Shown in pieces: positions 10,885-60,208 of a DNA stretch of 64,000 nucleotides. The notes below the pieces were generated by a model. That model did not search any database. It had not been told where the DNA came from and was given only the letters and a program-made list of their open reading frames with translations. Both the position numbers and the translations under genes were made by a program. Source of the stretch: Candidatus Omnitrophota bacterium (GTDB lineage: Bacteria > Omnitrophota > Gorgyraeia > Zapsychrales > JANLHA01); assembly GCA_020632555.1 (NCBI GenBank), contig JACKFI010000008.1, forward strand, positions 638 to 64,637. The letters are read 5' to 3'. Each line of letters begins with the position of its first letter. Positions within the stretch are counted from its first letter, which is position 1.

Positions 10885-10899
10885 AAAAAGGAGAGGCGT

Positions 10900-27155: not shown

Positions 27156-30100
27156 TTATTTTCTTATATTAGGTGTAGTATAGAAATTAGTGTTATTGCT
27201 GTCGTCGATGACATTGATAATGACGTAATCAGATGATGTTAGTTCCCCGTCGCTAGCTGTTAATCTAAAGATGTAAAATCCTTTTTGAGGAAATTTGACA
27301 GAGGTTGTTAAACTATTGGGATTGTCGAGAATGGCTTGTGATCTGCCATAAATTTGACTCCAGGAAATTGTAAGTGAATTGTTTGGATTTCCGTCATCTG
27401 TCGCTTTGCCTTGTAAAGTGACAGATGAGTTGAGTTGGACACGTTGGTGTAAGCCGGCATCCACAACAGGAGCTTTGTTGTTGGTAATGGGCTTGAAATT
27501 AGCGGTAACAGATTTATTGCCGTCGATAGTGATTGTCACGGGATTGCTTGAGCTGCTGATATCTCCGCTCCAAGAATCAAACTGATAACCTTTGTTTGGA
27601 ATAGCAGTTAAAGTGACTTTGTCGCCGGCTTGATAACTGGCTTGATTGGGACTTCGGGTAACTGCCCCGTTGGTTGCGGTTGTATTTAAAGTGTATGCAG
27701 GAACAGCTTTGACCGTGACGATAATATCGTCGCTGGAAGATAATTCACCGTCACTGACGGTGAGTCTTAGCATATAAGTTCCTGTCGCATAGAATGAAAC
27801 TGATGTTGTTAAAGCATGCTTGTCAGTAAATAATGCACTGCTGGGTCCTTCAACCATGCTCCAAGTTGAAGTTAATGTTTGGCTGGGCAATCCATCATCA
27901 GTTGCGCTGCCACGCAAACTAGCCGTATTGGGCAATTGAATGGTTTGATCTGTGCCTGCATTGACGACGGGAGCTTTGTTGGTAATGATCAAGGTAAAAT
28001 TAGCGGTAACAGATTTATTGCCGTCGATAGTGATTGTCACGGGATTGCTTGAGCTGCTGATATCTCCGCTCCAAGAATCAAACTGATAACCTTTGTTTGG
28101 AATAGCAGTTAAAGTGACTTTGTCGCCGGCTTGATAACTGGCTTGATTGGGACTTCGGGTAACTGCCCCGTTGGTTGCTGCTGTATTTAAAGTGAATGTC
28201 GAAACGGCTTTGACCGTGACGACAATATCGTCGCTGGAAGATAATTCACCGTCACTGACGGTGAGTCTTAGCATATAAGTTCCTGCCGCATAGAATGAAA
28301 CTGATGTTGTTAAAGCATGTTTGTCGGTGAATAATGCACTGCTGGGTCCTTCAACCATGCTCCAAGTTGAAGTTAATGTTTGATTGGGCAGCCCATCATC
28401 AGTTGCGCTGCCATGCAAACTAGCCGTATTGGGCAATTGAATGGTTTGATCTGTGCCTGCATTGACGACGGGAGCTTTGTTGGTAATGATCAAGGTAAAA
28501 TTAGCGGTAACAGATTTATTGCCGTCGATAGTGATTGTCACGGGATTGCTTGAGCTGCTGATATCTCCGCTCCAAGAATCAAACTGATAACCTTTGTTTG
28601 GAATAGCAGTTAAAGTCACTTTGTCGCCGGCTTGATAACTGGCTTGATTGGGACTTCGGGTAACTGCCCCGTTGGTTGCTGCTGTATTTAAAGTGAATGT
28701 CGAAACGGCTTTGACCGTGACGACAATATCGTCGCTGGAAGATAATTCACCGTCGGAAACGGTCAATCTCAATAAATACGTCCCTGCTGTTGAAAAGGCA
28801 GCGGATGTTTTAAGTGCCTGTGCATTGGCAAAGGTCACTTGCCCAGCCCCTTCGACCAGACTCCATTGAGACGTTAATGTTTGATTGGGCAGCCCATCAT
28901 CAGTTGCACCACCACTTAGATTGACAGTATTGGGCAATTGAATGGTTTGATCTGTGCCTGCATTGACGACGGGAGCTTTGTTGGTAATGATCAAGGTAAA
29001 ATTAGCGGTAACAGATTTATTGCCGTCGATAGTGATTGTCACGGGATTGCTTGAGCTGCTGATATCTCCGCTCCAAGAATCAAACTGATAACCTTTGTTT
29101 GGAATAGCAGTTAAAGTGACTTTGTCGCCAGCTTGATAGCTGGCTTGATTGGGACTTCGGGTAACTGCCCCGTTGGTTGCTGCTGTATTTAAAGTGAATG
29201 TCGAAACGGCTTTGACCGTGACGACAATATCGTCGCTGGAAGATAATTCACCGTCACTGACGGTGAGTCTTAGCATATAAGTTCCTGCCGCATAGAATGA
29301 AACTGATGTTGTTAAAGCATGTTTGTCGGTGAATAATGCACTGCTGGGTCCTTCAACCATGCTCCAAGTTGAAGTTAATGTTTGGCTGGGCAGCCCATCA
29401 TCAGTTGCACCACCACTTAGATTGACAGTATTGGGCAATTGAATGGTTTGATCTGTGCCTGCATTGACGACGGGAGCTTTGTTGGTAATGATCAAGGTAA
29501 AATTAGCGGTAACAGATTTATTGCCGTCGATAGTGATTGTCACGGGATTGCTTGAGCTGCTGATATCTCCGCTCCAAGAATCAAACTGATAACCTTTGTT
29601 TGGAATAGCAGTTAAAGTCACTTTGTCGCCGGCTTGATAACTGGCTTGATTGGGACTTCGGGTAACTGCCCCGTTGGTTGCTGCTGTATTTAAAGTGAAT
29701 GTCGAAACGGCTTTGACCGTGACGACAATATCGTCGCTGGAAGATAATTCACCGTCGGAAACGGTCAATCTCAATAAATATGTTCCTGCTGTTGAAAATG
29801 ATACAGATGTATTAAGTGCTTGCGCGTTGGCAAAGGCTACTTGGCTGGGGCCTTGGATAAGGCTCCAAGTTGAAGTTAATGTTTGGCTGGGCAGCCCATC
29901 ATCAGTTGCGCTGCCACGCAAACTAGCCGTATTGGGCAATTGAATGGTTTGATCTGTGCCTGCATTGACGACGGGAGCTTTGTTGATAATGATCAAGGTA
30001 AAATTAGCGGTAACAGATTTATTGCCGTCGATAGTGATTGTCACGGGATTGCTTGAGCTGCTGATATCTCCGCTCCAAGAATCAAACTGATAACCTTTGT

Positions 30101-32306
30101 TTGGAATAGCAGTTAAAGTCACTTTGTCACCAGCTTGATAACTGGCTTGATTGGGACTTCGGGTAACTGCCCCGTTGGTTGCTGCTGTATTTAAAGTGAA
30201 TGTCGAAACGGCTTTGACTGTGACGACAATATCGTCGCTGGAAGATAATTCACCGTCAGAAACAGTCAATCTCAATAAATACGTTCCTGCTGTTGAAAAT
30301 GATACAGATGTATTAAGTGCTTGCGCGTTGGCAAAGGCTACTTGGCTGGGGCCTTGGATAAGGCTCCAAGTTGAAGTTAATGTTTGACTGGGCAATCCAT
30401 CATCAGTTGCGCTGCCATGCAAACTAGCCGTATTGGGCAATTGAATGGTTTGATCTGTGCCTGCATTGACGACGGGAGCTTTGTTGGTAATGATCAAGGT
30501 AAAATTAGCGGTAACAGATTTATTGCCGTCGATAGTGATTGTCACGGGATTGCTTGAGCTGCTGATATCTCCGCTCCAAGAATTAAATTTATAACCTTTG
30601 TATGGTATTGCGGTTAAAGTTATTGTGTCGCCTAATCCATAGCTTGATTGTGTAGGATTTATAAGGATACTTCCGTTAATGGCGGAAGTTGTTACAGTAT
30701 ATCTGGCAGTATTGTAGTTATAATCGGCCCATGAATTGATGAATGCAAGGCTTGAGCTGATTCTATCGAATTCTCTGGGAGTTCCGTTACCGACAATTTC
30801 TTCACCGGTTGCAGTATTAATGAGTTTGAAATTTTTCAGTATTGTTGAATTCCCGGCCGCGTTATCAAAGACTTGAATATAATATCGAGTTAATGTTGAG
30901 CCAGAAGGGAGAAGATCGGTAAAGTCAACGACGAAATTTCCGTCTATTGCGGTGGTTGATCCATTGTAGGAAAAAGCTCCGCCATTATAATGAGGTTGAC
31001 CCAAGGAATAGTTAGTGATTGTTGGTGTTGTAGCTGTTGTATTTGAAGTTCCTAAAACGATCAGATTTTGATTTCTTTGTGCTTGATTGAGTGTAAATTG
31101 ACCGATGAGTTTTGGTGTGTAATTAGATTTGACCGTCATGACATAAGCCCAATTGCCCCAAATGGCTCCTTCTCGTGCTGTTGGAGCCCCAGCGACTTTA
31201 GATGTGGTTTGGATGGCGTCATAAGCTAACCACATAAAGCCACTATTTCCCCAGCCGCTGCCCCAAGAGTTAGCGATTTTCAAAGCGCCCAATTCACCGG
31301 TATCAACAACACCATTGCCATTAATATCCGTCCAAATATCATCATTGTAGCCGACGATGGTCATCGAATGGCCACCTTTGCTATTGTTTATTGCGTAGGA
31401 GGCAATGTTTTGATTGATAAATGGATCGTCTGCAGATGATAAAACATTGTTTTTGATAGTGGTAAATCGCCAGTCATAAATGTAGGTTCCGAAAATAAGA
31501 ATATAACCATTATTCAAAAGTTGTTTGAGCTGTTCTAGCCCAGCTGGGGTGTTAATGTCGCGCGTGTATTGAACAGGATTGATTCGAGCATTAAGAGCAT
31601 TGCGCCAGATTTGGGCGTTGGTTGGCCAAGAAAGGTAATCACTATTATAGGGAAGCTCCGCCCATGTGGGTGCGCCATTGTTTTCCAGAATTTGATAATT
31701 GTCAGAAAAAGAAGATCCAGCATTTTGTCCGTAATTAATGAGGTTATAAACAAATTTTGGTGAGTAAACAACATTTGTATCTCCGGTATTAATGGCAATA
31801 TCTTTATCGCGAGCCTGCATGTAAGAAAGTTGGTAATAGGTGATTGAAAAAGGAGCACAAGAACCCAGTGACCCTTGGCTTCTAATTGGTGGAAACCAGG
31901 GATTTTGACTATTGTCAACAAAGGTTGGCAAGGTGCCTCCAACTTGGGATGAATAGCTGGCAGATAAAGATAGTGAAGAAACACCTGAACTTGTTGTTGA
32001 GGGATCAATTTCAGATTCAATATCTTGGTTATTATCAGCAATAATTTCCTGCTGAACTGTAGCGCGGCGCAGGGTCCTTCCTTGTTTTTTTAATTGAGCC
32101 TTGATGCGGTCATTTCCCAGCTGGTTAATATGGACTTTTTTAATACGTTTTCCGTTGTAGCGGATAAAGTCATCACTGGCTTGACTGTTGATTAAACCAG
32201 TCGGCTGCGAATGGTCGGTTTTCCAATCCTCTGCATACAAAGGTTGAGAATAAATGGTTAATAAGGCTAATAATGTGAAAATAATAAGGCAAGAACGTCT
32301 GATCAT
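27156..32306 (-). CDS. Giant secreted papain-like (C1) cysteine protease with 7 tandem [InlB-B-repeat-like + PKD-like] modules
   Basis: The ORF opens at 32381. MIRRSCLIIFTLLALLTIYSQPLYA (signal peptide) starts at ATG 32306 behind AAAGGAAA. C1 catalytic blocks QGSLGSCAPFS, GGHSMTIVGY, NSWGSGWGNSGFMW. Seven ~167-aa units follow, each of form ...NGAVTRSPNQASYQAGDKVTLTAIPNKGYQFDSWSGD...NKAPVVNAGTDQTIQLP...LRLTVSDGELSSSDDIVVTV. Confidence 0.85.
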   Translation of the reverse strand: MIRRSCLIIFTLLALLTIYSQPLYAEDWKTDHSQPTGLINSQASDDFIRYNGKRIKKVHINQLGNDRIKAQLKKQGRTLRRATVQQEIIADNNQDIESEIDPSTTSSGVSSLSLSASYSSQVGGTLPTFVDNSQNPWFPPIRSQGSLGSCAPFSITYYQLSYMQARDKDIAINTGDTNVVYSPKFVYNLINYGQNAGSSFSDNYQILENNGAPTWAELPYNSDYLSWPTNAQIWRNALNARINPVQYTRDINTPAGLEQLKQLLNNGYILIFGTYIYDWRFTTIKNNVLSSADDPFINQNIASYAINNSKGGHSMTIVGYNDDIWTDINGNGVVDTGELGALKIANSWGSGWGNSGFMWLAYDAIQTTSKVAGAPTAREGAIWGNWAYVMTVKSNYTPKLIGQFTLNQAQRNQNLIVLGTSNTTATTPTITNYSLGQPHYNGGAFSYNGSTTAIDGNFVVDFTDLLPSGSTLTRYYIQVFDNAAGNSTILKNFKLINTATGEEIVGNGTPREFDRISSSLAFINSWADYNYNTARYTVTTSAINGSILINPTQSSYGLGDTITLTAIPYKGYKFNSWSGDISSSSNPVTITIDGNKSVTANFTLIITNKAPVVNAGTDQTIQLPNTASLHGSATDDGLPSQTLTSTWSLIQGPSQVAFANAQALNTSVSFSTAGTYLLRLTVSDGELSSSDDIVVTVKAVSTFTLNTAATNGAVTRSPNQASYQAGDKVTLTAIPNKGYQFDSWSGDISSSSNPVTITIDGNKSVTANFTLIIINKAPVVNAGTDQTIQLPNTASLRGSATDDGLPSQTLTSTWSLIQGPSQVAFANAQALNTSVSFSTAGTYLLRLTVSDGELSSSDDIVVTVKAVSTFTLNTAATNGAVTRSPNQASYQAGDKVTLTAIPNKGYQFDSWSGDISSSSNPVTITIDGNKSVTANFTLIITNKAPVVNAGTDQTIQLPNTVNLSGGATDDGLPSQTLTSTWSMVEGPSSALFTDKHALTTSVSFYAAGTYMLRLTVSDGELSSSDDIVVTVKAVSTFTLNTAATNGAVTRSPNQASYQAGDKVTLTAIPNKGYQFDSWSGDISSSSNPVTITIDGNKSVTANFTLIITNKAPVVNAGTDQTIQLPNTVNLSGGATDDGLPNQTLTSQWSLVEGAGQVTFANAQALKTSAAFSTAGTYLLRLTVSDGELSSSDDIVVTVKAVSTFTLNTAATNGAVTRSPNQASYQAGDKVTLTAIPNKGYQFDSWSGDISSSSNPVTITIDGNKSVTANFTLIITNKAPVVNAGTDQTIQLPNTASLHGSATDDGLPNQTLTSTWSMVEGPSSALFTDKHALTTSVSFYAAGTYMLRLTVSDGELSSSDDIVVTVKAVSTFTLNTAATNGAVTRSPNQASYQAGDKVTLTAIPNKGYQFDSWSGDISSSSNPVTITIDGNKSVTANFTLIITNKAPVVNAGTDQTIQLPNTASLRGSATDDGLPSQTLTSTWSMVEGPSSALFTDKHALTTSVSFYATGTYMLRLTVSDGELSSSDDIIVTVKAVPAYTLNTTATNGAVTRSPNQASYQAGDKVTLTAIPNKGYQFDSWSGDISSSSNPVTITIDGNKSVTANFKPITNNKAPVVDAGLHQRVQLNSSVTLQGKATDDGNPNNSLTISWSQIYGRSQAILDNPNSLTTSVKFPQKGFYIFRLTASDGELTSSDYVIINVIDDSNNTNFYTTPNIRK
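27470..30600. repeat. Intragenic tandem repeat, 501-bp period, ~6 near-identical copies plus diverged flanking copies
   Basis: The marker AGCGGTAACAGATTTATTGCCGTCGATAGTGATTGTCACGGG recurs at 27501, 28002, 28503, 29004, 29505, 30006 and 30507, an exact 501-bp spacing. The unit is in-frame (167 codons). Confidence 0.95.
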
Positions 32307-32466
32307 GATTAATTTCCTTTCAGTATTAATGTATTGTGTGCCAGAAGTCAGCAGAGCAGAAAAAGCTTTGGTATTTGTCAAACACGATGTTCTCGTGAGA
32401 GTTTACCTGATGAAATGGACAGAAGCAAGGGCATGGGGAGTTTTAGGGGATTATTTTCTTAATTAA

Positions 32467-32507
32467 TAAAAAAACCAGCCAGCGACAGATGTCACTGGCT
32501 GGTTTTT
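32467..32507 (-). terminator. Bidirectional-looking terminator after the S8 protease gene
   Basis: A-run, then CCAGCCAG (32475-32482) ... CTGGCTGG (32495-32502), then T-run. It lies 12 nt beyond the S8 stop, so the giant protease has its own promoter. Confidence 0.75.
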
Positions 32508-32518
32508 GAATATAACTG

Positions 32519-34330
32519 TTATTTTCGAGATGTTCTAAAGTTGCTAACTAATGTTGTCTCATTTGAGCTGCCATCATTGCTGATGACTGTTATTTTATAG
32601 AAATATCGTGTGGATTTTGTTAGATTCTTTAGGGTTATAACGTGATCGGTTGCCAGTGTGTTATCCGTTGCGGAAAGATTTAAGCTGGATTTTGCTGTTC
32701 CGTAAGAAATAATGCCAGTCGAAGGCAAATTTGTCGTCCAAGCAATGGTTGCTGTTGTCGCATTCTTTTCTGTGACTGAATAGGAATTAATGCTGACAAT
32801 TTGAGGTGCTTGGGGAATGATTGCGGTTGCAACATTGCTAGCTTGAGAAATATTGCCAGCTGCGTCAAAAGCTTTAATCGTGTAATTATATGTTGCCTCA
32901 GGAACAACCGTATTGTCACTATAGCTTGTCATTGTGTTTGTTCCAATTTCAATATTATCGCGATAAATTTTATAACCGCTTACGCCGACCAAATCGATTG
33001 ACGCATTCCATGACATTTGGACACTGGTACTGTCTAATGCTGTGATAATAAGATTGGTTGGTGCTGTTGGAGGTGTTGTATCAACATTGCCTGTTGCATT
33101 TCTTGCGGCTAAAACAGCAGCTGCCGCATTCACGCGACCCCATCCATAGTATAGATCCCAACCAACAGAACCTAGATCAACAGCTGTTGATTTTAAAATA
33201 CTTTCCGCTTGATCAGGTGTTAAATTTGGATTAGCGGCAAAAATCAAAGCAAGAACAGCTGCAGTTGTTGGCGTGGCAAAAGAAGTTCCTGAAACGCTCG
33301 TGTAACCGCCGCTTGAGCTGGTTGTATAAATGCCGACGCCTGGAGCTGAAATATCAATTGCGTCACCATAGTTAGACCAACCTGCTCTATTGTCATTAGC
33401 GTCTGTAGCCGCAACAGTAATAACGGATGTTGGGTTAGGTGTGGTCAATAAGACCCCTTCATTTCCGGCAGCAGCAAGAAATAAACCATTTTTGCTGCGC
33501 AAATAACTGGCCGCACTTTGTACAGAAGCACTATTAGAGGAAGCATAGCTGTTGGTTGCAATTTTTGCGCCATGATCAGCTGCATAAACAATGCCATTGG
33601 CAACATCTGAAAAGTAAGCGTAACCTGTCGTATCGTTTGTAATACGAATGGGCATGATTTTTGCTTCAAAAGCTACGCCAGCAGAGCCAATATTATTATT
33701 GCCAGTTTCTGCGACAACTCCTGCGACTTTTGTTCCGTGCCCGTAAATATCAGTAAAATCATTGTTGTTGCTGATAACATTCCAGCCAGAAATACAATTT
33801 GCCACAAGGTCAGCATGGTTGCAATTGACTCCAGTATCAAGCACGGCTACCACAACACCTTGACCTTTGGTTGTATTCCAGGCAGAAGGAGCTTCAATTT
33901 TTGTTGCGTGCCATTGATCTGAGAAGTTGGGGTCATTGGGGATAAGGCTAGGTTCAATGAGAGCATCTACTTCTGCAAATTCAATGGTATTTGTTTCTTG
34001 CGCATTGAGTCGATCAACAACTTCCTGTGGAGTATCGTCTAGTGAAATGCTAAGGAGTTTGATTCCCAGTTGACGAATTTCTTTCTTCTCTTTCAGATTG
34101 TGCTTAGAGAGAAGTTTATCTTTGGCCATCGGGCTGGCATTATTTTTGAATTTAACAATGATATGGTCGCTTGCTTCGCCAAGATGGCGTCCTTTAGAAA
34201 TATCAGAAGATTTTTCTGATGCTTGCGATGGTATTTTGGGTGCGGCTAATGCGAATGAAGTAAAGACCAGGAGAATGGTTAGTGAAAGCAAACATTGGCA
34301 GCATTTTCTTGTGTGTTTGAGCCAGTTCAT
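32519..34330 (-). CDS. Secreted subtilisin-like serine protease (S8) with I9 propeptide and two C-terminal FN3 domains
   Basis: 603 aa with a signal peptide (...LLVFTSFALA). Triad blocks VAVLDTGV (D), HGTKVAGVVA (H), SGTSFATPTTAAV (S). FN3-like PPTAPTNLIITALDSTSVQMSWNAS...YKIYRD. Confidence 0.9.
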   Translation of the reverse strand: MNWLKHTRKCCQCLLSLTILLVFTSFALAAPKIPSQASEKSSDISKGRHLGEASDHIIVKFKNNASPMAKDKLLSKHNLKEKKEIRQLGIKLLSISLDDTPQEVVDRLNAQETNTIEFAEVDALIEPSLIPNDPNFSDQWHATKIEAPSAWNTTKGQGVVVAVLDTGVNCNHADLVANCISGWNVISNNNDFTDIYGHGTKVAGVVAETGNNNIGSAGVAFEAKIMPIRITNDTTGYAYFSDVANGIVYAADHGAKIATNSYASSNSASVQSAASYLRSKNGLFLAAAGNEGVLLTTPNPTSVITVAATDANDNRAGWSNYGDAIDISAPGVGIYTTSSSGGYTSVSGTSFATPTTAAVLALIFAANPNLTPDQAESILKSTAVDLGSVGWDLYYGWGRVNAAAAVLAARNATGNVDTTPPTAPTNLIITALDSTSVQMSWNASIDLVGVSGYKIYRDNIEIGTNTMTSYSDNTVVPEATYNYTIKAFDAAGNISQASNVATAIIPQAPQIVSINSYSVTEKNATTATIAWTTNLPSTGIISYGTAKSSLNLSATDNTLATDHVITLKNLTKSTRYFYKITVISNDGSSNETTLVSNFRTSRK

Positions 34331-34545
34331 AACGGATTTCCTTTCTTTGATTATATTGTATAATTGTTCATGTTGTCCGTGTTGTCTGGCGAAAGGGTAA
34401 CATTTTTAGGCCAGAGGAGCAAGTGGGTCGCTGGGTTTTTCCCTTTGAGACACAAAAGAGCTTTTTTAATTTGTGTTTGTTTGAATTAGCTTTATAATTT
34501 CACAGAAGGTATGGGTTTTTAATAAGACTGGGTGTTTCCTATTTA

Positions 34546-35076
34546 GTGATGATAGTTAAGCCGAATAAGAGTATTTTAAAGCGATTATTTAAGCGTCGGC
34601 CTTCGGCTTTGTTTGTTTTACAAATTTTTTTAGTAGCGGTGATTTTGGTTTCTGTTGGTATTGCTGTTTTTCGTTATCAGCGAACAGTTTTTGTGATGGC
34701 AGAACCCAAGAATCATCAGTCGCAAAAAAGCCAATCTGTGGATAGTGTCTTGGCGAAAGATGGTAAGCCATTGAGCTTTTATCAGGATCTTATAAATCAA
34801 CGGGATATTTTTCATTTTCAATCTTCTGTTGTTGAGCCCGTCGGAGAAGTTGGTGAATTGATAACTGCGGCGGATAGCAATTTTTCTTCACGGTATATTG
34901 TGCAGGGTATTGTGATTGATCAAAATTCGCAAGCAATTATTAAAGATATGCAAAGTGCCAAAACACTTTTTGTACATCGCAATGAACAACTCAATGGAGC
35001 AACCCTGGTTGATATTCAGGGCAATCGACTGACTTTTAATCTCAATGGCAAAACTTTCGAATTGATTAAAAAATGA
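34546..35076 (+). CDS. GspC/PilP-like inner-membrane secretin-coupling protein
   Basis: 176 aa. One N-terminal TM (ALFVLQIFLVAVILVSVGIAVF). C-terminal beta domain YIVQGIVIDQNSQAIIKDMQSAKTLFVHRNEQLNGATLVDIQGNRLTF. The stop overlaps the secretin start (ATGA). Confidence 0.5.
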   Translation: MMIVKPNKSILKRLFKRRPSALFVLQIFLVAVILVSVGIAVFRYQRTVFVMAEPKNHQSQKSQSVDSVLAKDGKPLSFYQDLINQRDIFHFQSSVVEPVGEVGELITAADSNFSSRYIVQGIVIDQNSQAIIKDMQSAKTLFVHRNEQLNGATLVDIQGNRLTFNLNGKTFELIKK

Positions 35077-38458: not shown

Positions 38459-38479
38459 AGTCAGGATGCAGAGGTTTTT

Positions 38480-39691
38480 ATGATGAGATTTTTTTATAAA
38501 GCGCGAGACGTTCAGGGAGTTTTGGTTGAAGGTCAGCTGGATGCGCAATCGCGCGCGGAAGCTGTTCAACAGATTTTGCGTGATAAATTAGTGCCGCTTG
38601 AAGTTGAAGGGCAAGAAGTCAAAAGTTCACAACGAACATCTGTATTGAATAAAGGGCGCGTTCGTTTAGAAGATTTGGCTGATTTTCTTCGACGGTTATC
38701 TGATTTGGTGGAAGCGGATCTTCCCTTGATTCGCGCTTTACAGATTGTTGAAAAACGAACGACGCGCGTGCTGTTGAAAGAAGCGATTGGTCGGATTTTG
38801 GTGAAAGTTTCGGATGGGTCGACTTTGTCGGCGGCTATTGCCGCGGAACCGCGAGTTTTTCCGGCATTTTGGCCGGGGTTGATTTATGCCGGAGAATTGA
38901 GCGGGCGGCTTAAACAAATCCTTTCGCGTTTGAGTCAATTGGTTGAAAAGGAATTGGAAACACGTTCACGATTGATCAGCGGCGCGATTTATCCTTTGAT
39001 TATTTTGATTGTTGGTATTTTGACTGTTTTTGCTTTATTGGTTTTTGCAGTTCCTCGATTGAGCGCGATGTTTGTTGAATTGGGGCAACAGTTGCCCTTG
39101 ATTACAAAGATTTTATTAGCCGTCAGTGCTTTTTTGGTTAAAACGTGGTGGATGTTTTTGGTGCTGGGTTTTGTCGTGGGTTTTTGGATTAAATTTTTAT
39201 TTTCGACGGCATCGGGGAAATTGATGTGTGAACGCTATTTATTGCGATTACCCTTTTGGGGTGAATTTATTAGTGTTGATGATATGGAACGTTTGGCGCG
39301 AACCATCGGGATTCTTTTAGAAAGCGGCGTTGAAACCGTGACAGCTTTAGATTGTGGGATGCAAACTGTCAAGCGTGAAACTTTTAAAGTTCATCTTAAA
39401 AGAGTGATTGAATCGGTTCGGCAGGGTGTGGGCTTAAGCGCGGCTTTTGCCCGCTCGCCGGTATTTTCAGAAGATATCGTTAATATGCTTAATGTCGGAG
39501 AGGAATCAGGACGAGGTTATCAAGGATTTTTGCAATGGGCGCAAGTGTGTGATCGTCGGTTGGAGCGGATGACAAAAATGGCCACGGCTTTGATTGAGCC
39601 GGCATTGATTCTTTTGATTGGGGGTATGGTTGGTTTTATTGTGATGGCGCTTTTGTTGCCGATTTTCCAAATGAGCATGGGGATGGGATAA
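38480..39691 (+). CDS. gspF: GspF/PilC inner-membrane platform protein
   Basis: 403 aa. Duplicated T2SSF architecture with 3 TM helices. ...AIYPLIILIVGILTVFALLVFAVP... and C-terminal LIEPALILLIGGMVGFIVMALLLPIFQM. Confidence 0.9.
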   Translation: MMRFFYKARDVQGVLVEGQLDAQSRAEAVQQILRDKLVPLEVEGQEVKSSQRTSVLNKGRVRLEDLADFLRRLSDLVEADLPLIRALQIVEKRTTRVLLKEAIGRILVKVSDGSTLSAAIAAEPRVFPAFWPGLIYAGELSGRLKQILSRLSQLVEKELETRSRLISGAIYPLIILIVGILTVFALLVFAVPRLSAMFVELGQQLPLITKILLAVSAFLVKTWWMFLVLGFVVGFWIKFLFSTASGKLMCERYLLRLPFWGEFISVDDMERLARTIGILLESGVETVTALDCGMQTVKRETFKVHLKRVIESVRQGVGLSAAFARSPVFSEDIVNMLNVGEESGRGYQGFLQWAQVCDRRLERMTKMATALIEPALILLIGGMVGFIVMALLLPIFQMSMGMG

Positions 39692-39697
39692 ATCGAG

Positions 39698-40129
39698 ATG
39701 AGTGCTTATCAAAGAAATTTTTTTGTGTTTTCGCTACATTGTTTTAAGCAGCAACGAGCCAGTTTTTTGTTAGAAGCTTTGCTGGCTGTTTTGATTCTTT
39801 CTGTTGGTTTGGTTGGTTTGATTCGGGGACTTTTGTCGTCACTTAACGCGGCCAAAGAGGCACAGGCTTATTCACGTGCGACCATTGTGGCGGATAATGC
39901 TTTGTTGGATGTGATACGACTTAACAGTGTCAAAACAACTTCGCCCGTACAGGTTGATTTACAGTCGGATCAACTTAAGGCGCAGATTGATGTGGTTGAA
40001 TCGGATAATATTTTTGTGCCTGGTATTTTGCGGGAAGCTCGCCTTATGATTAAATGGCCTGGGGCATTGCAAGATAAAAAACTCCAAGCTACAACTTTGA
40101 TATTTGGATCGCCTGATGAGAATAAATAG
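39698..40129 (+). CDS. GspI-like minor pseudopilin with non-canonical leader
   Basis: 143 aa. Hydrophobic pilin helix SFLLEALLAVLILSVGLVGL, with Glu at +5 if cleaved after Ala21. It is preceded by a 21-aa leader with no Gly at -1. C-terminal ...REARLMIKWPG... resembles GspI. Confidence 0.5.
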   Translation: MSAYQRNFFVFSLHCFKQQRASFLLEALLAVLILSVGLVGLIRGLLSSLNAAKEAQAYSRATIVADNALLDVIRLNSVKTTSPVQVDLQSDQLKAQIDVVESDNIFVPGILREARLMIKWPGALQDKKLQATTLIFGSPDENK

Positions 40130-40139
40130 GGGGCTTTTT

Positions 40140-40829
40140 ATGAACCGTCAGGGATTTACGCTTATTGAAGTTTTAATTTCAGTTATGATTATTGCTTTTA
40201 TGGCAGGAAGTCTTTATGCGACGTTTGCGGCGGGTTTAAAATTGGAGCGACGCGCGCGACAAAGTTTTCAAGATATTGGCGAGACGCGCTTGATTATTGA
40301 GCAATTGACTAGAGATTTTGGGAGAGTTGTTTACTATGATTTTACTGGATCATTTGCCGATAAAAAGAGTTTTGCAGTCGACGAGACACATTTGACTTTT
40401 GTTATTGATGATGCAGGACAGTTAAGATGGATTCGGTATTCGCTTGTTAGAGAAGATTTTGGAAAAGTCAAAACAACGCAATTGGGGATTACTTCTTCAC
40501 GTAATGTGGCCGTTTCGACGGTGTCGAGCACAGAAGATCACTTATTGACTCTGGTGCGTGAAGAAAATGATTTTTCCCCCGCTCTTTCATTAACGGATGA
40601 TTTTCAGGAAAGAGAAGTTTTGACAAAGCGGGTTGTGGATAAGGGATGGAATCTTTCTTTCGCGAGCACATTGGAAAGCCAGCCTAAAATGGAATGGCAA
40701 ACAGATTGGGCAAATGATTACATGCCGGCGGCGGTGCGCATGAGTTTGTCGATTCAATCAGCCAGCGGTGAGATAAAGAAAATTGTGCGGGATTTTATTC
40801 TGCCGGCAGGGGGGCGTCGTGAGTCGTAG
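40140..40829 (+). CDS. GspJ-like minor pseudopilin (prepilin-type N-terminal cleavage/methylation domain)
   Basis: The ORF track opens at 40104. ATG 40140 follows AGGGGG and gives MNRQG|FTLIEVLISVMIIAFMAG, a canonical prepilin signal. About 230 aa, GspJ-sized. Confidence 0.65.
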   Translation: MNRQGFTLIEVLISVMIIAFMAGSLYATFAAGLKLERRARQSFQDIGETRLIIEQLTRDFGRVVYYDFTGSFADKKSFAVDETHLTFVIDDAGQLRWIRYSLVREDFGKVKTTQLGITSSRNVAVSTVSSTEDHLLTLVREENDFSPALSLTDDFQEREVLTKRVVDKGWNLSFASTLESQPKMEWQTDWANDYMPAAVRMSLSIQSASGEIKKIVRDFILPAGGRRES

Positions 40830-41907
40830 AAATCATTCAAAATATATTTTTATTAATCAGACTGGATCGATTTTGATTGTATCTGTGTGGATGTTGGCTT
40901 TACTTTTTTTGTTAACCATTGGCTTGGGCCGCCGGGTTAATCAAGAGTTGATATATGTAAAATACTCTTTGCAGAAAATGCAAGCGCGTTATTTGGCTTG
41001 GGCTGGCTTTCATTATGCTTTAGAACAGATTCGGGAAGATATGCAAGATGACACAAGCAAACTTTTTGATAATAATTTTGCATGTGGTGTTCATTTAACA
41101 GAGGGGCAGTCAGCGGAAGATATTTTTAAGAGTACGGCATTAAGTACAGGAAGTTTTGAGATTGCAAGGCAAAAAATAGATGGAGAGAATGTTGAAACAC
41201 ACTTTGGGTTTAGCGATGAAGATGGTAAGGTAAATTTGAATGCGTTAAATTTACAAAATTATGGCATTTTAAAAGAGCTTTTTGTCACAGTTGGGGTTGC
41301 TGAAGCAGAAGCTTTGCGACTTGCCGTGGCAGTAGTGGATTGGCAGGATGAGGATACGGTTCCGGTTTTGAAACAGTCGCAAAGTGAAGAAGGTCCTTTT
41401 GGATGGAACCAAAAAAAAATACCGGCAAAGAATAGACCATTTGATCATCGTTTTGAGTTGATGTTTATTGATGGTATGACGCCAGAAATTTATCAAAAGG
41501 TTGAAAATTTGATAACTGTTTTTCCCCGTCGTTCGCAAGGATTGAAAATCAATTTAGCTACAGCTTCACAAGAGGTGATTAGGGCTTTGACAAGAAATTT
41601 CTCAGGACCATTGACGAATACTTCTGCGGTGGATGCTGAAAGTTTAGCGGCTAAAATTCTGGTTTCACGAATGGGGGCGGATCAAGTCGAAGGAACTCAG
41701 GATGATCCGGTTTTGAATGAACAAGAATTGGGCTTGACAGCGCCTGAGGCTAATATTTTCCGGGCGATGGGGCCTGTGCGAACATTAACATCGCGGTTTT
41801 TGGTGGCGCATGTTACAGGATTGGACGCGACTGGTCAGCGCAGAAGCCATATTGATGCGGTGATTGATCGTGATAGTTTAACCGTAGTGTCATGGAAAGC
41901 GGATTAG
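40819..41907 (+). CDS. gspK: GspK-like minor pseudopilin
   Basis: GTG 40819 follows GCAGGGGGG and overlaps the upstream stop. GSILIVSVWMLALLFLLTIGL, FSDEDGKVNLNAL and ELMFIDGMTPEIYQKVENLITVF are T2SS-K type blocks. Confidence 0.7.
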   Translation: MSRRNHSKYIFINQTGSILIVSVWMLALLFLLTIGLGRRVNQELIYVKYSLQKMQARYLAWAGFHYALEQIREDMQDDTSKLFDNNFACGVHLTEGQSAEDIFKSTALSTGSFEIARQKIDGENVETHFGFSDEDGKVNLNALNLQNYGILKELFVTVGVAEAEALRLAVAVVDWQDEDTVPVLKQSQSEEGPFGWNQKKIPAKNRPFDHRFELMFIDGMTPEIYQKVENLITVFPRRSQGLKINLATASQEVIRALTRNFSGPLTNTSAVDAESLAAKILVSRMGADQVEGTQDDPVLNEQELGLTAPEANIFRAMGPVRTLTSRFLVAHVTGLDATGQRRSHIDAVIDRDSLTVVSWKAD

Positions 41908-43343
41908 GCATGTTGGCATTAAGCAAAAAATTGATCACAGTGATATCTGTGGGGCCGTCGCGGGTGACCGTTGCGCAGGGATCTGGTTTGAAGCTTGATT
42001 TTTTTGCTGGCGCCGATGTGGTTTGGTCCGATGAACAAAAATCTCGGGATGCTTTGCTAACGCTTATGCCATTGAAACGTCGGCGGCATGTGCGGGAATT
42101 GTGCGTGGTTTTGCCGCGGGCGATGTTTTTTACTAAATTGATTCATTTGCCTTCTGTTGATGAACAAGAAATACGCAAGATGGCTGCTTTACAAATTGGT
42201 CAATTGTTACCTTATGCTCAAGAGCAAGCTGTTTGGGATTGTATTGTTTGCGGGCAAACAGATTTGGTCAGTGATGTCTTGATTGTGGCGGCACAGCGTG
42301 AAGCGGTAATGAAGTATTTGCGTGTTCTTTTATCGGCAGGTTTGTCGCCGACATTTGTCACTTTAAGCTCTCAGGTTTTGGCTAACCTTTTGGGTACAGG
42401 AGATTTAACGGATCATAGGGTTTTGTTTTTCTTGGATGAGCGCTCAACTGAAATTTGTTTTTGTTTGAATGGAAGATTTTATTCTTCGCGCGGGATTATT
42501 TATGGCGCCAAAGATTTGACCGATGGAAATTTTACCGATTTTTGGGCACAAGTGCGATTGACGTTTGCTTCACAACGCAAGAATTTCCCGCAATATGCTG
42601 CTCCGTCGGGATTATGCCTGACGCGATTTATGGATAATTTGCCATCAGGGTTTTTAGAACATTTGATACAGGAGTCTGGTATTGCATGGGATTATTTTTC
42701 TTTTGATGATTTTAAAAAGAAATTGGGTGCATTTTCATTGTCAAGTCAACAAATCGTGGATGTTGATGTTTTGATGGTTTTAGCGATTTTGCGACAAAAT
42801 ATTAGGAATATGAATAATTTTTTGCCCAAGGATTTTAGAGATCGACATAGTGTTAAGGCGGGTCGCAAGAATGCGATGGTGTTGATTTTTTTCATCCTAA
42901 TGAGTGTTTTGACTATGACTTTATCTGTGGGTGCTCCGGTTGTGAAAAAAACCCAACAGTTGCAATTATTAAATGAAGAACTAGAGCGGGTTAAGAATCC
43001 GTTTTTGCAATTGCGTAAAGAACAAGAACTTTGGACAGCTGTAAAGAGTAGTTTGCAAAAACATGCTGCGCCTTTGTCTGTGATCCAAGAGCTTTATCGG
43101 ATTATTCCACAAGGAATTTCTTTTTCAAAGATTCGTATTGGTTCACAGAATGAATTTCAGTTGGAAGGTCAGGCTTTGCAATCGGCGGCTGTTAATGAGT
43201 TGCAGGAAAAAATGATGGCGGGCAGGTTATTGCGGGATGTGCGACTTGATCATACTGTTCGTCGGGCAAGTTCACAGGGGGAAGTTATTTGGTTTGTCAT
43301 TTCAGCTAAGGTCCGGGACATTGGAGGAGATCAAGGTGAATGA
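41892..43343 (+). CDS. GspL-like assembly protein (PilM-like actin-fold N-domain + TM + PilN-like C-domain)
   Basis: 483 aa. PilM-like ...VLPRAMFFTKLIHLPSVDEQEIRKMAALQIGQLLPYAQEQAVWDCIV. Single TM AMVLIFFILMSVLTMTLSV. The periplasmic coiled-coil/ferredoxin-like tail is PilN/GspL-like. Confidence 0.6.
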   Translation: MESGLGMLALSKKLITVISVGPSRVTVAQGSGLKLDFFAGADVVWSDEQKSRDALLTLMPLKRRRHVRELCVVLPRAMFFTKLIHLPSVDEQEIRKMAALQIGQLLPYAQEQAVWDCIVCGQTDLVSDVLIVAAQREAVMKYLRVLLSAGLSPTFVTLSSQVLANLLGTGDLTDHRVLFFLDERSTEICFCLNGRFYSSRGIIYGAKDLTDGNFTDFWAQVRLTFASQRKNFPQYAAPSGLCLTRFMDNLPSGFLEHLIQESGIAWDYFSFDDFKKKLGAFSLSSQQIVDVDVLMVLAILRQNIRNMNNFLPKDFRDRHSVKAGRKNAMVLIFFILMSVLTMTLSVGAPVVKKTQQLQLLNEELERVKNPFLQLRKEQELWTAVKSSLQKHAAPLSVIQELYRIIPQGISFSKIRIGSQNEFQLEGQALQSAAVNELQEKMMAGRLLRDVRLDHTVRRASSQGEVIWFVISAKVRDIGGDQGE

Positions 43344-43893
43344 CCGTAAGACAGTCTTAAAGAGTAGAGAAAAAGTCATGATGGTTGCCGCCGGGGTAGC
43401 TGTTTTTTCTTTATTGTGGACATATATTATTGTGCGCCCGATTCAAAATTATGAGCATGACATTGATGTGAATTTGAAGTCTAAGAATTTGAAATTGTTG
43501 GAAGCAAAAAAAGCTCTTTTGGAGACATCTGTAAATTCTGCGGTGAAGAATTTTTTGCAAAAGTTCTCTGCGCAAGGTTCAGCTCAGGAAGAAATGTCGC
43601 GTTTGATTAAAGATATTGAGATGGTAGCAACGCGATCCGGCTTGCGTGTTATTGAGATCAAGCCTCAGCCGCGCTTACAAAATGCAGGCTGGTTTGAATT
43701 AAAAGTTAATATTTCGTTTGAAGGTTCTTGGGATGACATTGTTGGTTTTTTATATCAGCTCGAGCAAGATGATAATCCGTTTTTGGTTAATGAAATGACT
43801 TTGGAAATGATTGTGGCGCAACAAACCATGGTTCGTGGAAAACTTGAGATTGAGCGACTGTTTGTTGTGAAATCAGAAAATCTTGGTCCGTGA
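43336..43893 (+). CDS. GspM/PilO-like assembly protein
   Basis: The ORF track opens at 43237. GTG 43336 follows GGAGGA and overlaps the upstream stop. One TM, a coiled coil, then SGLRVIEIKPQPRLQNAGWFELKVNISFEGSWDDIVGFLYQLEQDDNPFLVNEMTLE (PilO-type). Confidence 0.6.
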   Translation: MNDRKTVLKSREKVMMVAAGVAVFSLLWTYIIVRPIQNYEHDIDVNLKSKNLKLLEAKKALLETSVNSAVKNFLQKFSAQGSAQEEMSRLIKDIEMVATRSGLRVIEIKPQPRLQNAGWFELKVNISFEGSWDDIVGFLYQLEQDDNPFLVNEMTLEMIVAQQTMVRGKLEIERLFVVKSENLGP

Positions 43894-43941
43894 AGCTATC
43901 TTTTTGTTTTCTTAGAAAAATGTTGGTTTGAGTTTAAAATT

Positions 43942-44793
43942 ATGCTGCGCAAAAGAAATATAAAAAAGGTTCTGACCTTAGAATTAAAAATTGCTTTAGT
44001 GATTGTTGTTCTGGTGGTGTATTTTCATGATTTTATTAGGCAATATATTAAGCCGCCAGTTATGGAGTATGTGAGCACTCACATTGATTTTTTGAAGCTG
44101 GTGATTTTTTGTGTTTTTGTCTTTTGTTCTTTGTCTTTAATCCTGATTGTTTGGCTATTGGAGTGGGGTGATAAGAAACAGCAGTCGGTGGTTACAAAAT
44201 ATGTGAGCCAATTGGTGTGCAGTAATTATTATGGAGATTATCGCAAGACGAATGTCTACCAAGCAATCAAAACGTGTTTGAGCAAATTTTCACGTGATGG
44301 GGCACAGGAAGAGGATCAGCCGCAGGTGGTTCAAGATCCTAGACGACGTTTTGCGCGACGTCAGGTGGATTCAAAACGTTTTGCGCAAAGAACATTTCCT
44401 TGGGAAGAGAAAGACGCGCAGTCAAGAGAGAAGAGAGCTGATGGGGTCCATCAAACGTTTTATAAAAATGGCCGATTAGAAAAAGAAATCAGTTATAAGA
44501 ACAATGTTTTGGATGGTGTTTTTAAAACTTATTATGATGATGGCCGTTTACATCAAGAGGGATGTTATAAAGAAGGAAAGTTGGATGGTGTTTATAAGGC
44601 TTATGATGAGGATGGCATTTTATATTTTGATATGAATTATCGGCAAGGCAAACAAGATGGTATCACAAATATGTATTTTAAAAATGGTGTTTTGCAGTAT
44701 CGCGATACTTTCAAGAATGGCAAAAGAGTTTTTCGGGAAACATACAGCGAAGTTGGCGATTTATTGTTTCGCCAGAAAGAGATTATTTCCTAG
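43942..44793 (+). CDS. Membrane-anchored MORN-repeat (YwqK-like) protein
   Basis: 283 aa with two N-terminal TM helices. C-terminal repeats YKNGRLEKEISYKNNVLDGVFKTYYDDGRLHQEGCYKEGKLDGVYKAYDEDGILYFDMNYRQGKQDGI. Confidence 0.6.
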   Translation: MLRKRNIKKVLTLELKIALVIVVLVVYFHDFIRQYIKPPVMEYVSTHIDFLKLVIFCVFVFCSLSLILIVWLLEWGDKKQQSVVTKYVSQLVCSNYYGDYRKTNVYQAIKTCLSKFSRDGAQEEDQPQVVQDPRRRFARRQVDSKRFAQRTFPWEEKDAQSREKRADGVHQTFYKNGRLEKEISYKNNVLDGVFKTYYDDGRLHQEGCYKEGKLDGVYKAYDEDGILYFDMNYRQGKQDGITNMYFKNGVLQYRDTFKNGKRVFRETYSEVGDLLFRQKEIIS

Positions 44794-60176: not shown

Positions 60177-60208
60177 CCCCTGTTTGCGAAAGTGAACGGG
60201 GGTTTTTT
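60177..60208. terminator. Hairpin terminator between convergent genes
   Basis: CCCCTGTT (60177-60184) / AACGGGGG (60195-60202) plus T6. The T-run abuts the stop codon of the convergent YfhO gene. Confidence 0.6.

Follow-up and report, generated by a model that had tools for sequence, protein, structure and literature searches.

A 64-kb window of an Omnitrophota genome, the whole stretch of DNA analyzed here, probably holds a fairly ordinary T2SS of this phylum in a rearranged form specific to one clade, beside which two independently transcribed exoprotease genes, encoding plausible cargo, were recently inserted. Members of the Omnitrophota are uncultured and mostly ultra-small, and predatory or parasitic lifestyles are suspected for them. 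With respect to how they act on other cells, the locus provides concrete candidate exo-enzymes together with a candidate export route. Its practical value is modest, amounting to a testable pair of cargo and machine, with the caution that the adjacency of proteases and operon is recent and not conserved.

For comparison, we retrieved 80 species-representative related T2SS loci, most of them labelled Omnitrophota, in which secretin identity ranges from 42% to 83%. Domain scans with Pfam covered the long open reading frames (ORFs; at least 100 aa) of the window that were judged real. A check of the ORFs in the window found all of those listed in an earlier annotation made from the DNA alone (hereafter, the sequence-only reading) at the positions given there.

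A putative T2SS operon without gspG and gspH

The operon spans 34546-44793 on the forward strand and encodes a GspC-like protein, a secretin, an ATPase with an MshEN domain, GspF, three pseudopilin-like proteins, a PilM-PilN fusion, a PilO/GspM-like protein and a MORN_2 protein. As the sequence-only reading had described, these ten genes run divergently from a gene for an S8 protease, with 215 bp between the S8 start and the first gene of the operon. That reading also took almost every junction for a start/stop overlap; most junctions overlap or span <25 bp.

The first gene (34546-35076) encodes a GspC-like protein, in which an HR domain accompanies a single TM segment and which matches TIGR01713 at E=0.006. 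A profile built from 23 Omnitrophota homologues matches the HR domain of ETEC GspC (3OSS_C, E=1.5e-5) and gives three further weak matches to GspC/OutC (E 0.34-0.64) and none to PilP; neither a PDZ nor a coiled-coil domain was found in the protein. The secretin gene (35073-36749) follows, with an N0 domain (24.8 bits, slightly below cut-off), two Secretin_N domains and a secretin domain (169.7 bits) in Pfam. Its NCBIfam scores for GspD (250.8 bits) and PilQ (249.1 bits) both fall short of the cut-off, and Pfam detected no AMIN domain, so that the N-terminal region, previously called PilQ-like, is not specifically so. The assembly ATPase (36746-38458; T2SSE, 431 bits) carries an N-terminal MshEN domain with a c-di-GMP-binding motif (NF053729, 44.3 bits against a cut-off of 38) and scores marginally higher as PilB (579 bits) than as GspE (573 bits). 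The inner-membrane platform protein (38480-39691), with two T2SSF domains, scores 317.9 bits as GspF and 248.9 bits as PilC.

Three minor pseudopilin genes come next. The first (39698-40129) is GspI/PilV-like, matching PilV (TIGR02523, E=3.8e-9) and GspI (E=0.0065), and its prepilin site as read in the sequence, A|SFLLE, is non-canonical. The GspJ-like protein (40140-40829; N_methyl; GspJ, E=1e-7) bears the only canonical prepilin signal that a motif scan found in the window, G|FTLIE. The model matches of these two proteins are weak. The third (40819-41907) is assigned to GspK by its T2SSK_1st domain (53.4 bits against a cut-off of 26.2) and by a match to NF037980 (E=3e-27) that lies below that model's cut-off. 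Beyond these lies a gene (41892-43343; PilM_2 and PilN in Pfam) for a platform protein of GspL architecture, in which one polypeptide combines an actin-fold domain resembling PilM with a TM segment and a domain resembling PilN. Its profile matches PilM (3JC8, E=2e-21; 5EOU; 2YCH) and PilN, with no match to GspL/EpsL, and tblastn alignments of the fusion span both parts in most related loci. A GspM/PilO-like platform protein (43336-43893) scores 32.5 bits for PilO and 28.9 bits for T2SSM_b and matches GspM_XpsM at E=1.5e-7. The last gene on this strand (43942-44793) encodes a membrane protein with MORN_2 repeats (E=1e-16). It holds the same position in the close relative L164, and in a further locus (L036) a MORN_2 protein is encoded between gspC and gspD; the protein may be a T2SS accessory component.

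A motif scan and tblastn with Omnitrophota GspG both indicate that GspG is missing from the whole 64-kb window, operon included, and GspH, which relatives possess, was not found anywhere in the window. No match to Peptidase_A24, expected for the prepilin peptidase GspO/PilD, was obtained among the long ORFs. Genes for this peptidase are often located apart from the other T2SS genes (PMC6668835), and GspG may likewise be encoded elsewhere in the genome. Because the operon carries none of the three in cis, the machine cannot work without genes outside the window, and the operon, described earlier as complete-looking, is incomplete. In related loci the common gene order is E-F-G-H-I-J-K-L-M...C-D, and the orthologous operons carry both GspH and a GspG that scores above the equivalog cut-off (155 bits in L009 and 138 bits in L005; TIGR01710 cut-off, 88.85). 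These comparisons support assignment of the apparatus to the T2SS family, as a system conserved across Omnitrophota. The matches to PilM, PilN and PilO appear to represent a GspL-architecture fusion and a GspM/PilO-like protein in a divergent T2SS lineage; given the bona fide GspG of relatives, a T2SS/T4P hybrid, as proposed earlier, is an overstatement.

Two secreted proteases as candidate cargo

Both proteases are encoded on the reverse strand, and the domain content ascribed to them from the letters alone was recovered by Pfam and repeat searches. The larger (27156-32306; 1,716 aa) is a secreted C1A papain-family cysteine protease. A signal peptide (aa 1-25) and a pro-region of ~100 aa precede the catalytic domain (aa ~127-364), which is followed by a beta-sandwich domain (aa ~386-530) and by seven copies of a unit that Pfam resolves into a Flg_new_2/InlB-B and a K319L-like PKD domain. 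The Pfam match to Peptidase_C1 (PF00112, aa 127-364) is weak (32.9 bits against a cut-off of 20.7). In an alignment of 24 sequences, the catalytic set Q144/C150/H313/N346/W348 is invariant, and an AlphaFold model (pLDDT 78, pTM 0.78) adopts a papain fold. The top Foldseek matches of this model are xylellain, cathepsins K/L/S, Cwp84 and Lpg2622, with TM scores of up to 0.75 on the target for xylellain and the cathepsins. On the evidence of alignment and model, the C1 enzyme looks catalytically competent.

The repeats form a tandem array of 7 x 501 bp (167 aa each) at 27206-30749, with an identity of 90-98% among the inner copies that falls to 69-78% for the end copies. TRF overlooked the array, the longest period that it reports being 500. 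A short-read contig (L001), on which an independent gene call agrees with the C1 start codon, breaks at the array. The closest C1 homologue found anywhere is 50% identical. An annotated family of "C1A cysteine protease / PKD repeat protein" occurs in Planctomycetota, Verrucomicrobiota, Omnitrophota, Desulfobacterota and other phyla, and the N-terminal 550 aa of the window protein share its architecture at 36-50% identity, with invariant catalytic residues and an ensuing PKD domain in both. Typical members have 700-980 aa and one PKD domain with an FN3-like or TIG tail, whereas the window protein has a recently amplified seven-unit InlB-B and PKD array.

The smaller protease (32519-34330; 603 aa) is a secreted S8 subtilase comprising a signal peptide, a Fervidolysin-type N-prodomain (Fervidolysin_NPro-like, 32.8 bits), a catalytic domain at aa 156-398 (PF00082, 168.9 bits) and two FN3-like domains. 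Its translation contains the triad motifs VLDTG (Asp), HGTKVAG (His) and GTSFATP (Ser) in subtilisin order, and this protease too looks catalytically competent. A homologue search found S8-FN3 proteins ~50% identical to it in CPR bacteria, which to our knowledge have neither an outer membrane nor a T2SS.

Sec-type signal peptides can be read in both translations. The sequence-only reading regarded the proteases as cargo and named a different sorting signal as evidence that would count against this; Pfam detected no PEP-CTERM, T9SS, autotransporter or LPXTG domain in either, and the C-termini read ...TTPNIRK and ...FRTSRK. Given the signal peptides and the lack of alternative sorting domains, export by the T2SS is the most plausible route, in keeping with its role in diderms as the usual way out for folded hydrolases exported by Sec. 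With ~185 kDa, the C1 protein would rank among the largest T2SS substrates known. We know of no recognizable sequence signal in such substrates, and cargo status is for this reason something we infer. There is precedent in NttB/Lpg2622 of Legionella pneumophila, a C1 peptidase that leaves the cell through the Lsp T2SS (PMC6617341; PDB 6A0N/6A0Q). The two proteins share a papain fold; Lpg2622 is only ~15% identical to the window C1 protein and has no PKD/InlB-B repeat stalk. The Lpg2622 gene is not known to adjoin the Legionella T2SS genes.

Under the explanation we favor, gspC-D-E-F-I-J-K-L-M and the MORN-repeat gene would constitute a single operon from which gspG and gspH were removed. Both proteases would be exported by Sec and fold in the periplasm with the help of their pro-regions. 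A pseudopilus of GspG, encoded elsewhere, with a tip of GspI-J-K would then most probably drive them out through the GspD secretin. A c-di-GMP-responsive GspE would supply power on a GspF/L/M platform that GspC couples to the secretin. Outside the cell, the C1 enzyme would be borne by a long stalk made up of 14 beta-sandwich domains; the S8 enzyme would cut external protein substrates in foraging or attack.

Proteases and operon are not co-conserved

The close relative L164, whose S8 protein is 89% identical, keeps the divergent arrangement of S8 and gspC; its contig stops 38 bp past the S8 stop codon, before any C1 sequence. Both proteases are absent beside the operon in three further relatives whose secretins are 78-83% identical to that of the window. 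In one of these (L003; secretin 83%), the order is ferrochelatase-DUF212-YkuD-AccA-RlmN-gspC, with ~190 bp and nothing else between rlmN and gspC, and in the other two (L002 and L004), unrelated membrane-protein genes (HAD, PMT/TPR and MFS) occupy this junction. Within 10 kb, the other 79 of the 80 species-representative T2SS loci contain no C1 gene, and a C1-S8 pair was not found elsewhere in the loci examined. The protease genes thus appear to have been inserted between rlmN and the operon promoter recently, at roughly the species level, and the operon/protease synteny that a dedicated module calls for breaks down in L002, L003 and L004 and in the other species loci, an outcome that the sequence-only reading had itself named as one that would refute it.

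Directly 3' of the S8 stop codon, on the reverse strand, is an intrinsic-terminator-like hairpin (32470-32507) with a 17-bp stem, eight GC pairs and a T tract, by which S8 and C1 are predicted to be split into separate transcripts. On the forward strand, a promoter-like segment 5' of gspC (34454-34507), with an exact TATAAT at 34493-34498, is kept in an alignment of the window with L164, L002, L003 and L004, whatever gene lies 5' of it. The operon would accordingly be driven by its own conserved putative promoter.

Most C1 and S8 homologues lie away from T2SS genes (78 of 80 C1 loci, in addition to P0122, P0124, P0186, which is ~50 kb off, and P0244). In two distant lineages, L087/L167 and L088, a C1 gene of the same C1-PKD family as that of the window directly follows the secretin gene on its 3' side. 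These lineages differ from each other substantially, with C1 proteins 47% identical, secretin C-termini 47% identical and GC contents of 38% and 47%. Under a rough random-placement model, ~0.02-0.05 such adjacencies are expected by chance in the 49 loci whose upstream flank is long enough, and the probability of two or more is ~1e-4 to 1e-3. The adjacency probably reflects a loose linkage, recurrent and non-obligate, between exoprotein genes and the T2SS, and not a co-evolved, dedicated module.

This recurrence bears on the possibility that operon and proteases have no functional link, the junction of rlmN and gspC being simply a permissive insertion site and the proteases being released through vesicles, through lysis or by a second T2SS, or acting in the periplasm or on the surface. 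We regard this as possible, if on the unlikely side. It accommodates a junction that, among close relatives, is empty, filled with a HAD/PMT/MFS block or occupied by the proteases, the distance of most family members from T2SS genes and an operon without its own GspG and GspH; in Caulobacter, moreover, elpS adjoins a 12-gene T2SS cluster, and an exoprotein gene so placed need not encode a direct substrate (PMC2996285). It fits poorly with the immediate C1-secretin adjacency in two more divergent lineages, which is well above the rough chance expectation, with the lack of another sorting signal and with the standard use of the T2SS by diderms for enzymes of this type. The cargo proposal is thus supported in part, by signals and recurrent adjacency, and weakened in that the linkage is not conserved.

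A dedicated export machine for attack or foraging, co-evolved with both proteases in the manner of Hxc/LapA or Pul/PulA, is in our estimation doubtful. The close divergent layout (215 bp) retained in a ~90% relative would agree with it, as would the adjoining C1 and secretin genes of the two other lineages. The operon also falls in a secretin clade of its own, and a single MAG, nzgw301, holds both a window-type (L006) and a typical (L045) secretin, which would allow the window type to represent a second, specialized T2SS; this paralogy rests on one MAG and a neighbor-joining tree without support values. Weighing more heavily against co-evolution are the same operon without either protease at 78-83% secretin identity, a promoter segment conserved regardless of its 5' neighbor, the predicted separate transcripts and the lack of a C1-S8 pair elsewhere.

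A broader reading, which we judge improbable, is that the operon is a second, specialized T2SS paralogue of one Omnitrophota clade that has lost its own GspG and GspH and borrows them from a housekeeping T2SS. Its GspL would have kept an ancestral PilM-PilN type, and its MORN protein would add a new component to the machine, either accessory or for cargo recognition. The operon would also offer a docking site to recently acquired exoproteases, which a nanobacterium, predatory or dependent on a host, would use on that host.

Least probable is a type IVa-like pilus on the cell surface, used to adhere to host cells or move on them, with the proteases as unrelated neighbors: although three components match PilV, PilM/PilN and PilO best, the ATPase scores marginally higher as PilB than as GspE and a TXSScan survey called T4aP clusters, which may or may not include this locus, in nearly all Omnitrophota (PMC10066038), the orthologous operons have equivalog-level GspG together with GspH, the profile of the first gene finds the HR domain of GspC rather than PilP, a GspK domain is present, GspF outscores PilC, PilM is fused to PilN in GspL style, and the operon and window contain no PilA, PilT, PilY1 or AMIN-domain secretin. 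The clean T4a pilus classification that the sequence-only reading had named as a counter-test was thus not obtained, with no PilT, PilA or AMIN domain among the scanned window ORFs. Compared with type IVa PilMNOPQ (e.g., Myxococcus 3JC8), the L- and M-like genes of the window match PilM, PilN and PilO best, but here PilM and PilN are fused, GspC stands in for PilP and a GspK-type minor pseudopilin is added.

Relation to described systems

In Klebsiella, pulA lies divergent from pulC-O. With such Gsp/Pul-type T2SSs adjoined by a substrate gene, the window shares C, D, E, F, I, J, K, L-like and M-like components, a tight operon, and Sec-dependent exoprotein genes alongside, one of them divergent. 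It differs in having no GspG, GspH, GspO or GspN in cis, an HR-only GspC, a GspL-like protein that resembles PilM plus PilN, and an exoprotein linkage that is not conserved among congeners.

Adjacent exoproteins, a C1 substrate of a T2SS and Omnitrophota T2SS-like loci beside giant genes have all been published, and the locus does not bear out the suggestion that it represents no described system. Published surveys of the phylum label clusters of this kind T4aP or Tad, save for the T2SS-like locus beside giant genes; our comparison identifies the widely conserved filament operon of the phylum as a T2SS that includes a bona fide GspG. In those giant-gene loci, T2SS-like genes lie upstream of the giant genes (West-Roberts et al. 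2023, bioRxiv 10.1101/2023.11.21.568195; also bioRxiv 10.64898/2026.06.07.730766), an arrangement interpreted as serving prey adhesion or degradation (bioRxiv 10.1101/2023.11.21.568195). They contain rcpC and a Rotamase_2 PPIase and are flanked by genes of >20 kb, whereas the window has neither RcpC nor a PPIase, and its neighbors are a 5.1-kb protease gene and the S8 gene. The likeness is one of theme: in the same phylum, a gspD/E/F locus lies beside a gene for a large, repeat-rich, adhesin- or enzyme-like secreted protein.

A probable divergent T2SS operon

The locus is best explained as a clade-specific version of the Omnitrophota T2SS that lacks GspG and GspH, next to which two exoprotease genes with transcription units of their own were recently inserted. 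An ORF map and Pfam searches bore out the gene placement and domains of the sequence-only reading. Ten tightly packed genes occupy 34546-44793 (+): a small transmembrane protein with no Pfam match, a secretin, a T2SSE ATPase with MshEN, a T2SSF platform protein, three pilin-like proteins (N_methyl in one, T2SSK_1st in one), a PilM_2-PilN fusion, a PilO/T2SSM_b protein and a MORN_2 membrane protein. Housekeeping genes lie on both sides, encoding ferrochelatase, a DUF212 protein, YkuD, AccA and RlmN on the left and a PMT-like glycosyltransferase, NifS and a biotin operon on the right.

A profile of the first gene product and 22 homologues matched the GspC HR domain 3OSS_C (E=1.5e-5), with three weaker GspC/OutC matches (E 0.34-0.64) and none to PilP. 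Given the HR match, a GspK domain in the operon and GspF as the best match of the platform protein, we identify the operon as a predicted T2SS. Pfam, motif and homology scans of the window found no PilA, PilT, PilY1 or AMIN domain. The profile of the 483-aa protein matched PilM (3JC8, E=2e-21; 5EOU; 2YCH) and PilN but gave no match to GspL. The T4P signals that had led to the description of a T2SS/T4P hybrid are real at the level of sequence, but the PilM-like and PilN-like domains are fused in the fashion of GspL, which speaks against a hybrid. T2SSs descend from T4aP (PMC6668835), and we read the operon as a putative divergent T2SS lineage and not as a hybrid of two machines. At its N terminus (aa 11-64), the GspE ATPase (36746-38458) carries an MshEN c-di-GMP-binding motif scoring 44.3 bits against an NCBIfam cut-off of 38, suggesting that secretion may be under c-di-GMP control.

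Secretin homologues at 50-91% identity are MAG-derived, and their named sources are Omnitrophota/Omnitrophica or its genus Candidatus Aceula. Scanning one genome per species yielded 80 related loci, the majority labelled Omnitrophota. Mapping the window proteins onto them by tblastn showed the system to be conserved across the phylum, usually in the order gspE-F-(~1.5 kb)-[I]-J-K-L-M ... gspC-D. The ~1.5-kb gap encodes a ~145-aa protein of classic GspG sequence, scoring 155 and 138 bits with the GspG equivalog TIGR01710 (cut-off 88.85), and a ~165-aa GspH-like pseudopilin.

Missing components and a clade-specific gene order

The order C-D-E-F-I-J-K-L-M is confined to the window and its nearest relatives (loci L001-L008); in a neighbour-joining tree of secretins, computed without support values, they make up a single clade. 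Within this group, G and H still follow F in L005 and are absent from the window, L002 and L006-L008. The operon had been described as complete-looking, yet homology searches found no GspG or GspH anywhere in the 64-kb window, a motif scan found no second canonical prepilin motif there, and Pfam found no prepilin peptidase among the ORFs scanned (those of 100 aa or more judged real). Each operon gene recovered from the relatives aligns to its window counterpart without interruption (tblastn; gene calls on the related contig L164), which makes it probable that the operon is functional. In that case, GspG and GspO would have to be taken from elsewhere. MAG nzgw301 encodes both a window-type secretin (L006) and one of the typical type (L045); this one MAG, together with a tree lacking support values, hints that the window-type operon may be a second T2SS paralogue. 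At least two secretin paralogues occur in several MAGs (L006/L045, L046/L061, L048/L050), and one Omnitrophota MAG has two gspC-gspD pairs in tandem (L048, 9459-13833).

A gene for a MORN_2-repeat protein comes last in the operon both in the window (43942-44793, +) and in L164. In a distant locus (L036, 838-1629), gspC and gspD are separated by a gene for another MORN_2 protein, which has a signal peptide. Such proteins may represent an accessory part of the Omnitrophota T2SS that has yet to be characterised.

The two proteases

The C1 cysteine protease gene (27156-32306, -) encodes 1,716 aa from an ATG that was also picked by an independent gene call on L001, a public contig with an identical locus. 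Its product comprises a Peptidase_C1 domain (32.9 bits, aa 127-364) followed by seven Flg_new_2 (divergent InlB B-repeat) and seven K319L-like PKD domains. A DNA repeat search placed a tandem array of 7 x 501 bp at 27206-30749 (-), with inner copies 90-98% and end copies 69-78% identical; Tandem Repeats Finder did not detect it because the 501-bp period exceeds the program's limit of 500. The short-read contig L001 breaks off at this array, and the copy number of seven hangs on the assembly behind the window and could be wrong.

Residues Q144, C150, H313, N346 and W348 are invariant in 24 homologues. Since a PDB sequence search with the C1 region returned a single weak match (3OIS, E=3e-4), we built an AlphaFold model (pLDDT 77.9, pTM 0.78), which shows a papain fold plus a beta-sandwich domain. 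Foldseek matched it to xylellain, cathepsins K/L/S, C. difficile Cwp84 and Legionella Lpg2622; the last of these (Lpg2622/NttB) is a documented T2SS substrate (PMC6617341). The catalytic region places the protein in a large family whose members often carry the annotation "C1A cysteine protease/PKD repeat protein", are 700-980 aa long and come from Planctomycetota, Verrucomicrobiota, Omnitrophota, Desulfobacterota and others; the closest homologue is only 50% identical.

The S8 subtilase (32519-34330, -) has a Fervidolysin-type prodomain and two FN3-like domains by Pfam, and its Asp, His and Ser motifs are intact in the translation. S8-FN3 relatives at ~50% identity are present in CPR bacteria, indicating that this family is not T2SS-specific. 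Read by eye from the translation, the N termini of both proteases resemble Sec signal peptides (MIRRSCLIIFTLLALLTIYSQPLYA|ED and ...LLVFTSFALA|AP). Pfam found no PEP-CTERM, T9SS, autotransporter or LPXTG domain in either protein, and thus none of the competing sorting signals, T9SS/PEP-CTERM for example, that had been put forward as counterevidence to T2SS cargo. In three contigs unrelated to one another (L162, 6655-7413; L165, 1273-2061; L166, 4708-5550), the gene directly upstream of a C1 or S8 homologue encodes a 250-280-aa PEP-CTERM-domain protein, which is absent from the window. Among five homologue contexts read gene by gene, three have this neighbour versus one with a T2SS.

A variable junction upstream of gspC

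The sequence-only reading had joined proteases and operon into a dedicated protease-export module for attack or foraging. Synteny does not sustain this claim: only the relative at ~90% keeps S8, and L002, L003 and L004 have no proteases at this position. In the former (L164, S8 89% identical), the divergent S8|gspC... arrangement is kept, and the contig stops 38 bp past the S8 stop, ahead of any C1 sequence. L003 (secretin 83%) runs ferrochelatase-DUF212-YkuD-AccA-RlmN, ~190 bp, gspC-gspD, with no protease between RlmN and gspC. A block of unrelated genes takes up this position in L002 (secretin 83%) and L004 (78%). In L002 the whole block runs in the direction of the operon and comprises genes for a HAD hydrolase, a small lipoprotein, two PMT/TPR membrane proteins and an MFS transporter; the last three genes of such a block are visible in L004 before the contig ends. 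Across the other 79 species loci, tblastn found no C1 match within 10-kb flanks, and one locus (L021) has an S8 gene ~6 kb off. An S8 homologue at 66% identity (L165) has no adjoining T2SS. The rlmN|gspC junction is variable in the loci compared, and the proteases appear to be a recent, roughly species-level insertion.

A segment of ~55 bp ahead of gspC, with a perfect TATAAT at 34493-34498, is conserved in five of five close loci, whatever the upstream neighbour. A terminator with a 17-bp stem follows the S8 stop, and S8 and C1 are therefore predicted to form separate transcripts. A mobile element was considered as the cause of the insertion but gained no support: in the window ORFs scanned, Pfam detected neither integrase nor transposase domains, and GC is little raised (to 0.456 in the repeat region). 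A search for a conserved C1-S8 pair outside the window gave only FN3-region cross-matches, and the idea of such a pair was dropped.

A looser association between C1 genes and secretins

Metagenome loci encoding the C1 family have no T2SS genes in their flanks in 78 of 80 cases. The nearest C1 homologues (loci P0122 and P0124) sit among housekeeping genes with no T2SS link, and a third locus (P0186), with a T2SS ~50 kb away on the same contig, was counted as unlinked. In L088 and L087/L167, an Omnitrophota-type secretin gene is followed directly at its 3' end by the C1 gene in the same orientation; these two cases are well diverged (C1 proteins 47% identical, secretin C termini 47%, GC 38% vs 47%). 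For the 49 loci whose upstream flank is 1.5 kb or longer, placing genes at random in a genome of 1,000-3,000 genes would yield 0.02-0.05 such adjacencies, with P(>=2) of ~1e-4 to 1e-3 under this rough, post hoc model. By that same approximate measure, C1-secretin adjacency is sporadic but non-random.

A general "cargo slot" after gspD in Omnitrophota was ruled out by Pfam on 50 downstream proteins, which include an AmiC-type amidase (the first member scanned), histidine kinases (7/50), response regulators and others; PKD domains occur in only three (L087, L088, L065). The secretin upstream of the C1 gene in L087/L167 (3-923) has a Lys/Glu-rich C-terminal extension of ~210 aa, probably a coiled coil; judged by eye, the end of the extension looks like a TonB C-terminal domain.

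Relation to known systems

In Klebsiella, pulA is divergent from pulC-O, an exoprotein gene adjoining a T2SS. Caulobacter elpS likewise adjoins a T2SS, and its product proved to be no direct substrate (PMC2996285), a caution for reading the window proteases as cargo. Such loci are classical, and the present locus, which had been thought not to be a described system, is a further example. It shares its theme with known T2SS-like loci beside giant genes, except that proteases stand where those loci have giant proteins. A survey of Omnitrophota with TXSScan reported T4aP and Tad systems (PMC10066038). The two exoproteases are plausible candidate T2SS substrates.

Other features of the window

GC skew is positive in each 2-kb bin (0.09-0.28) across 1-64000, including the stretch of minus-strand genes, and the plus strand carries nearly all genes, consistent with one replichore with strong strand bias. 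In the biotin operon, a 741-aa ORF (52757-54982) encodes a fusion of a dethiobiotin-synthase-like domain (AAA_26/BioD) with a BioA-like class-III aminotransferase, alongside genes for BirA, a BioF-like protein, an alpha/beta-hydrolase and a methyltransferase. Elsewhere, the window encodes a GIDE-domain protein (9961-11469) that has EF-hand motifs and whose gene adjoins one of the LemA family, a TonB-dependent receptor plug protein (2952-4961) and two YfhO-like membrane proteins (5099-7246 and 60207-62573).
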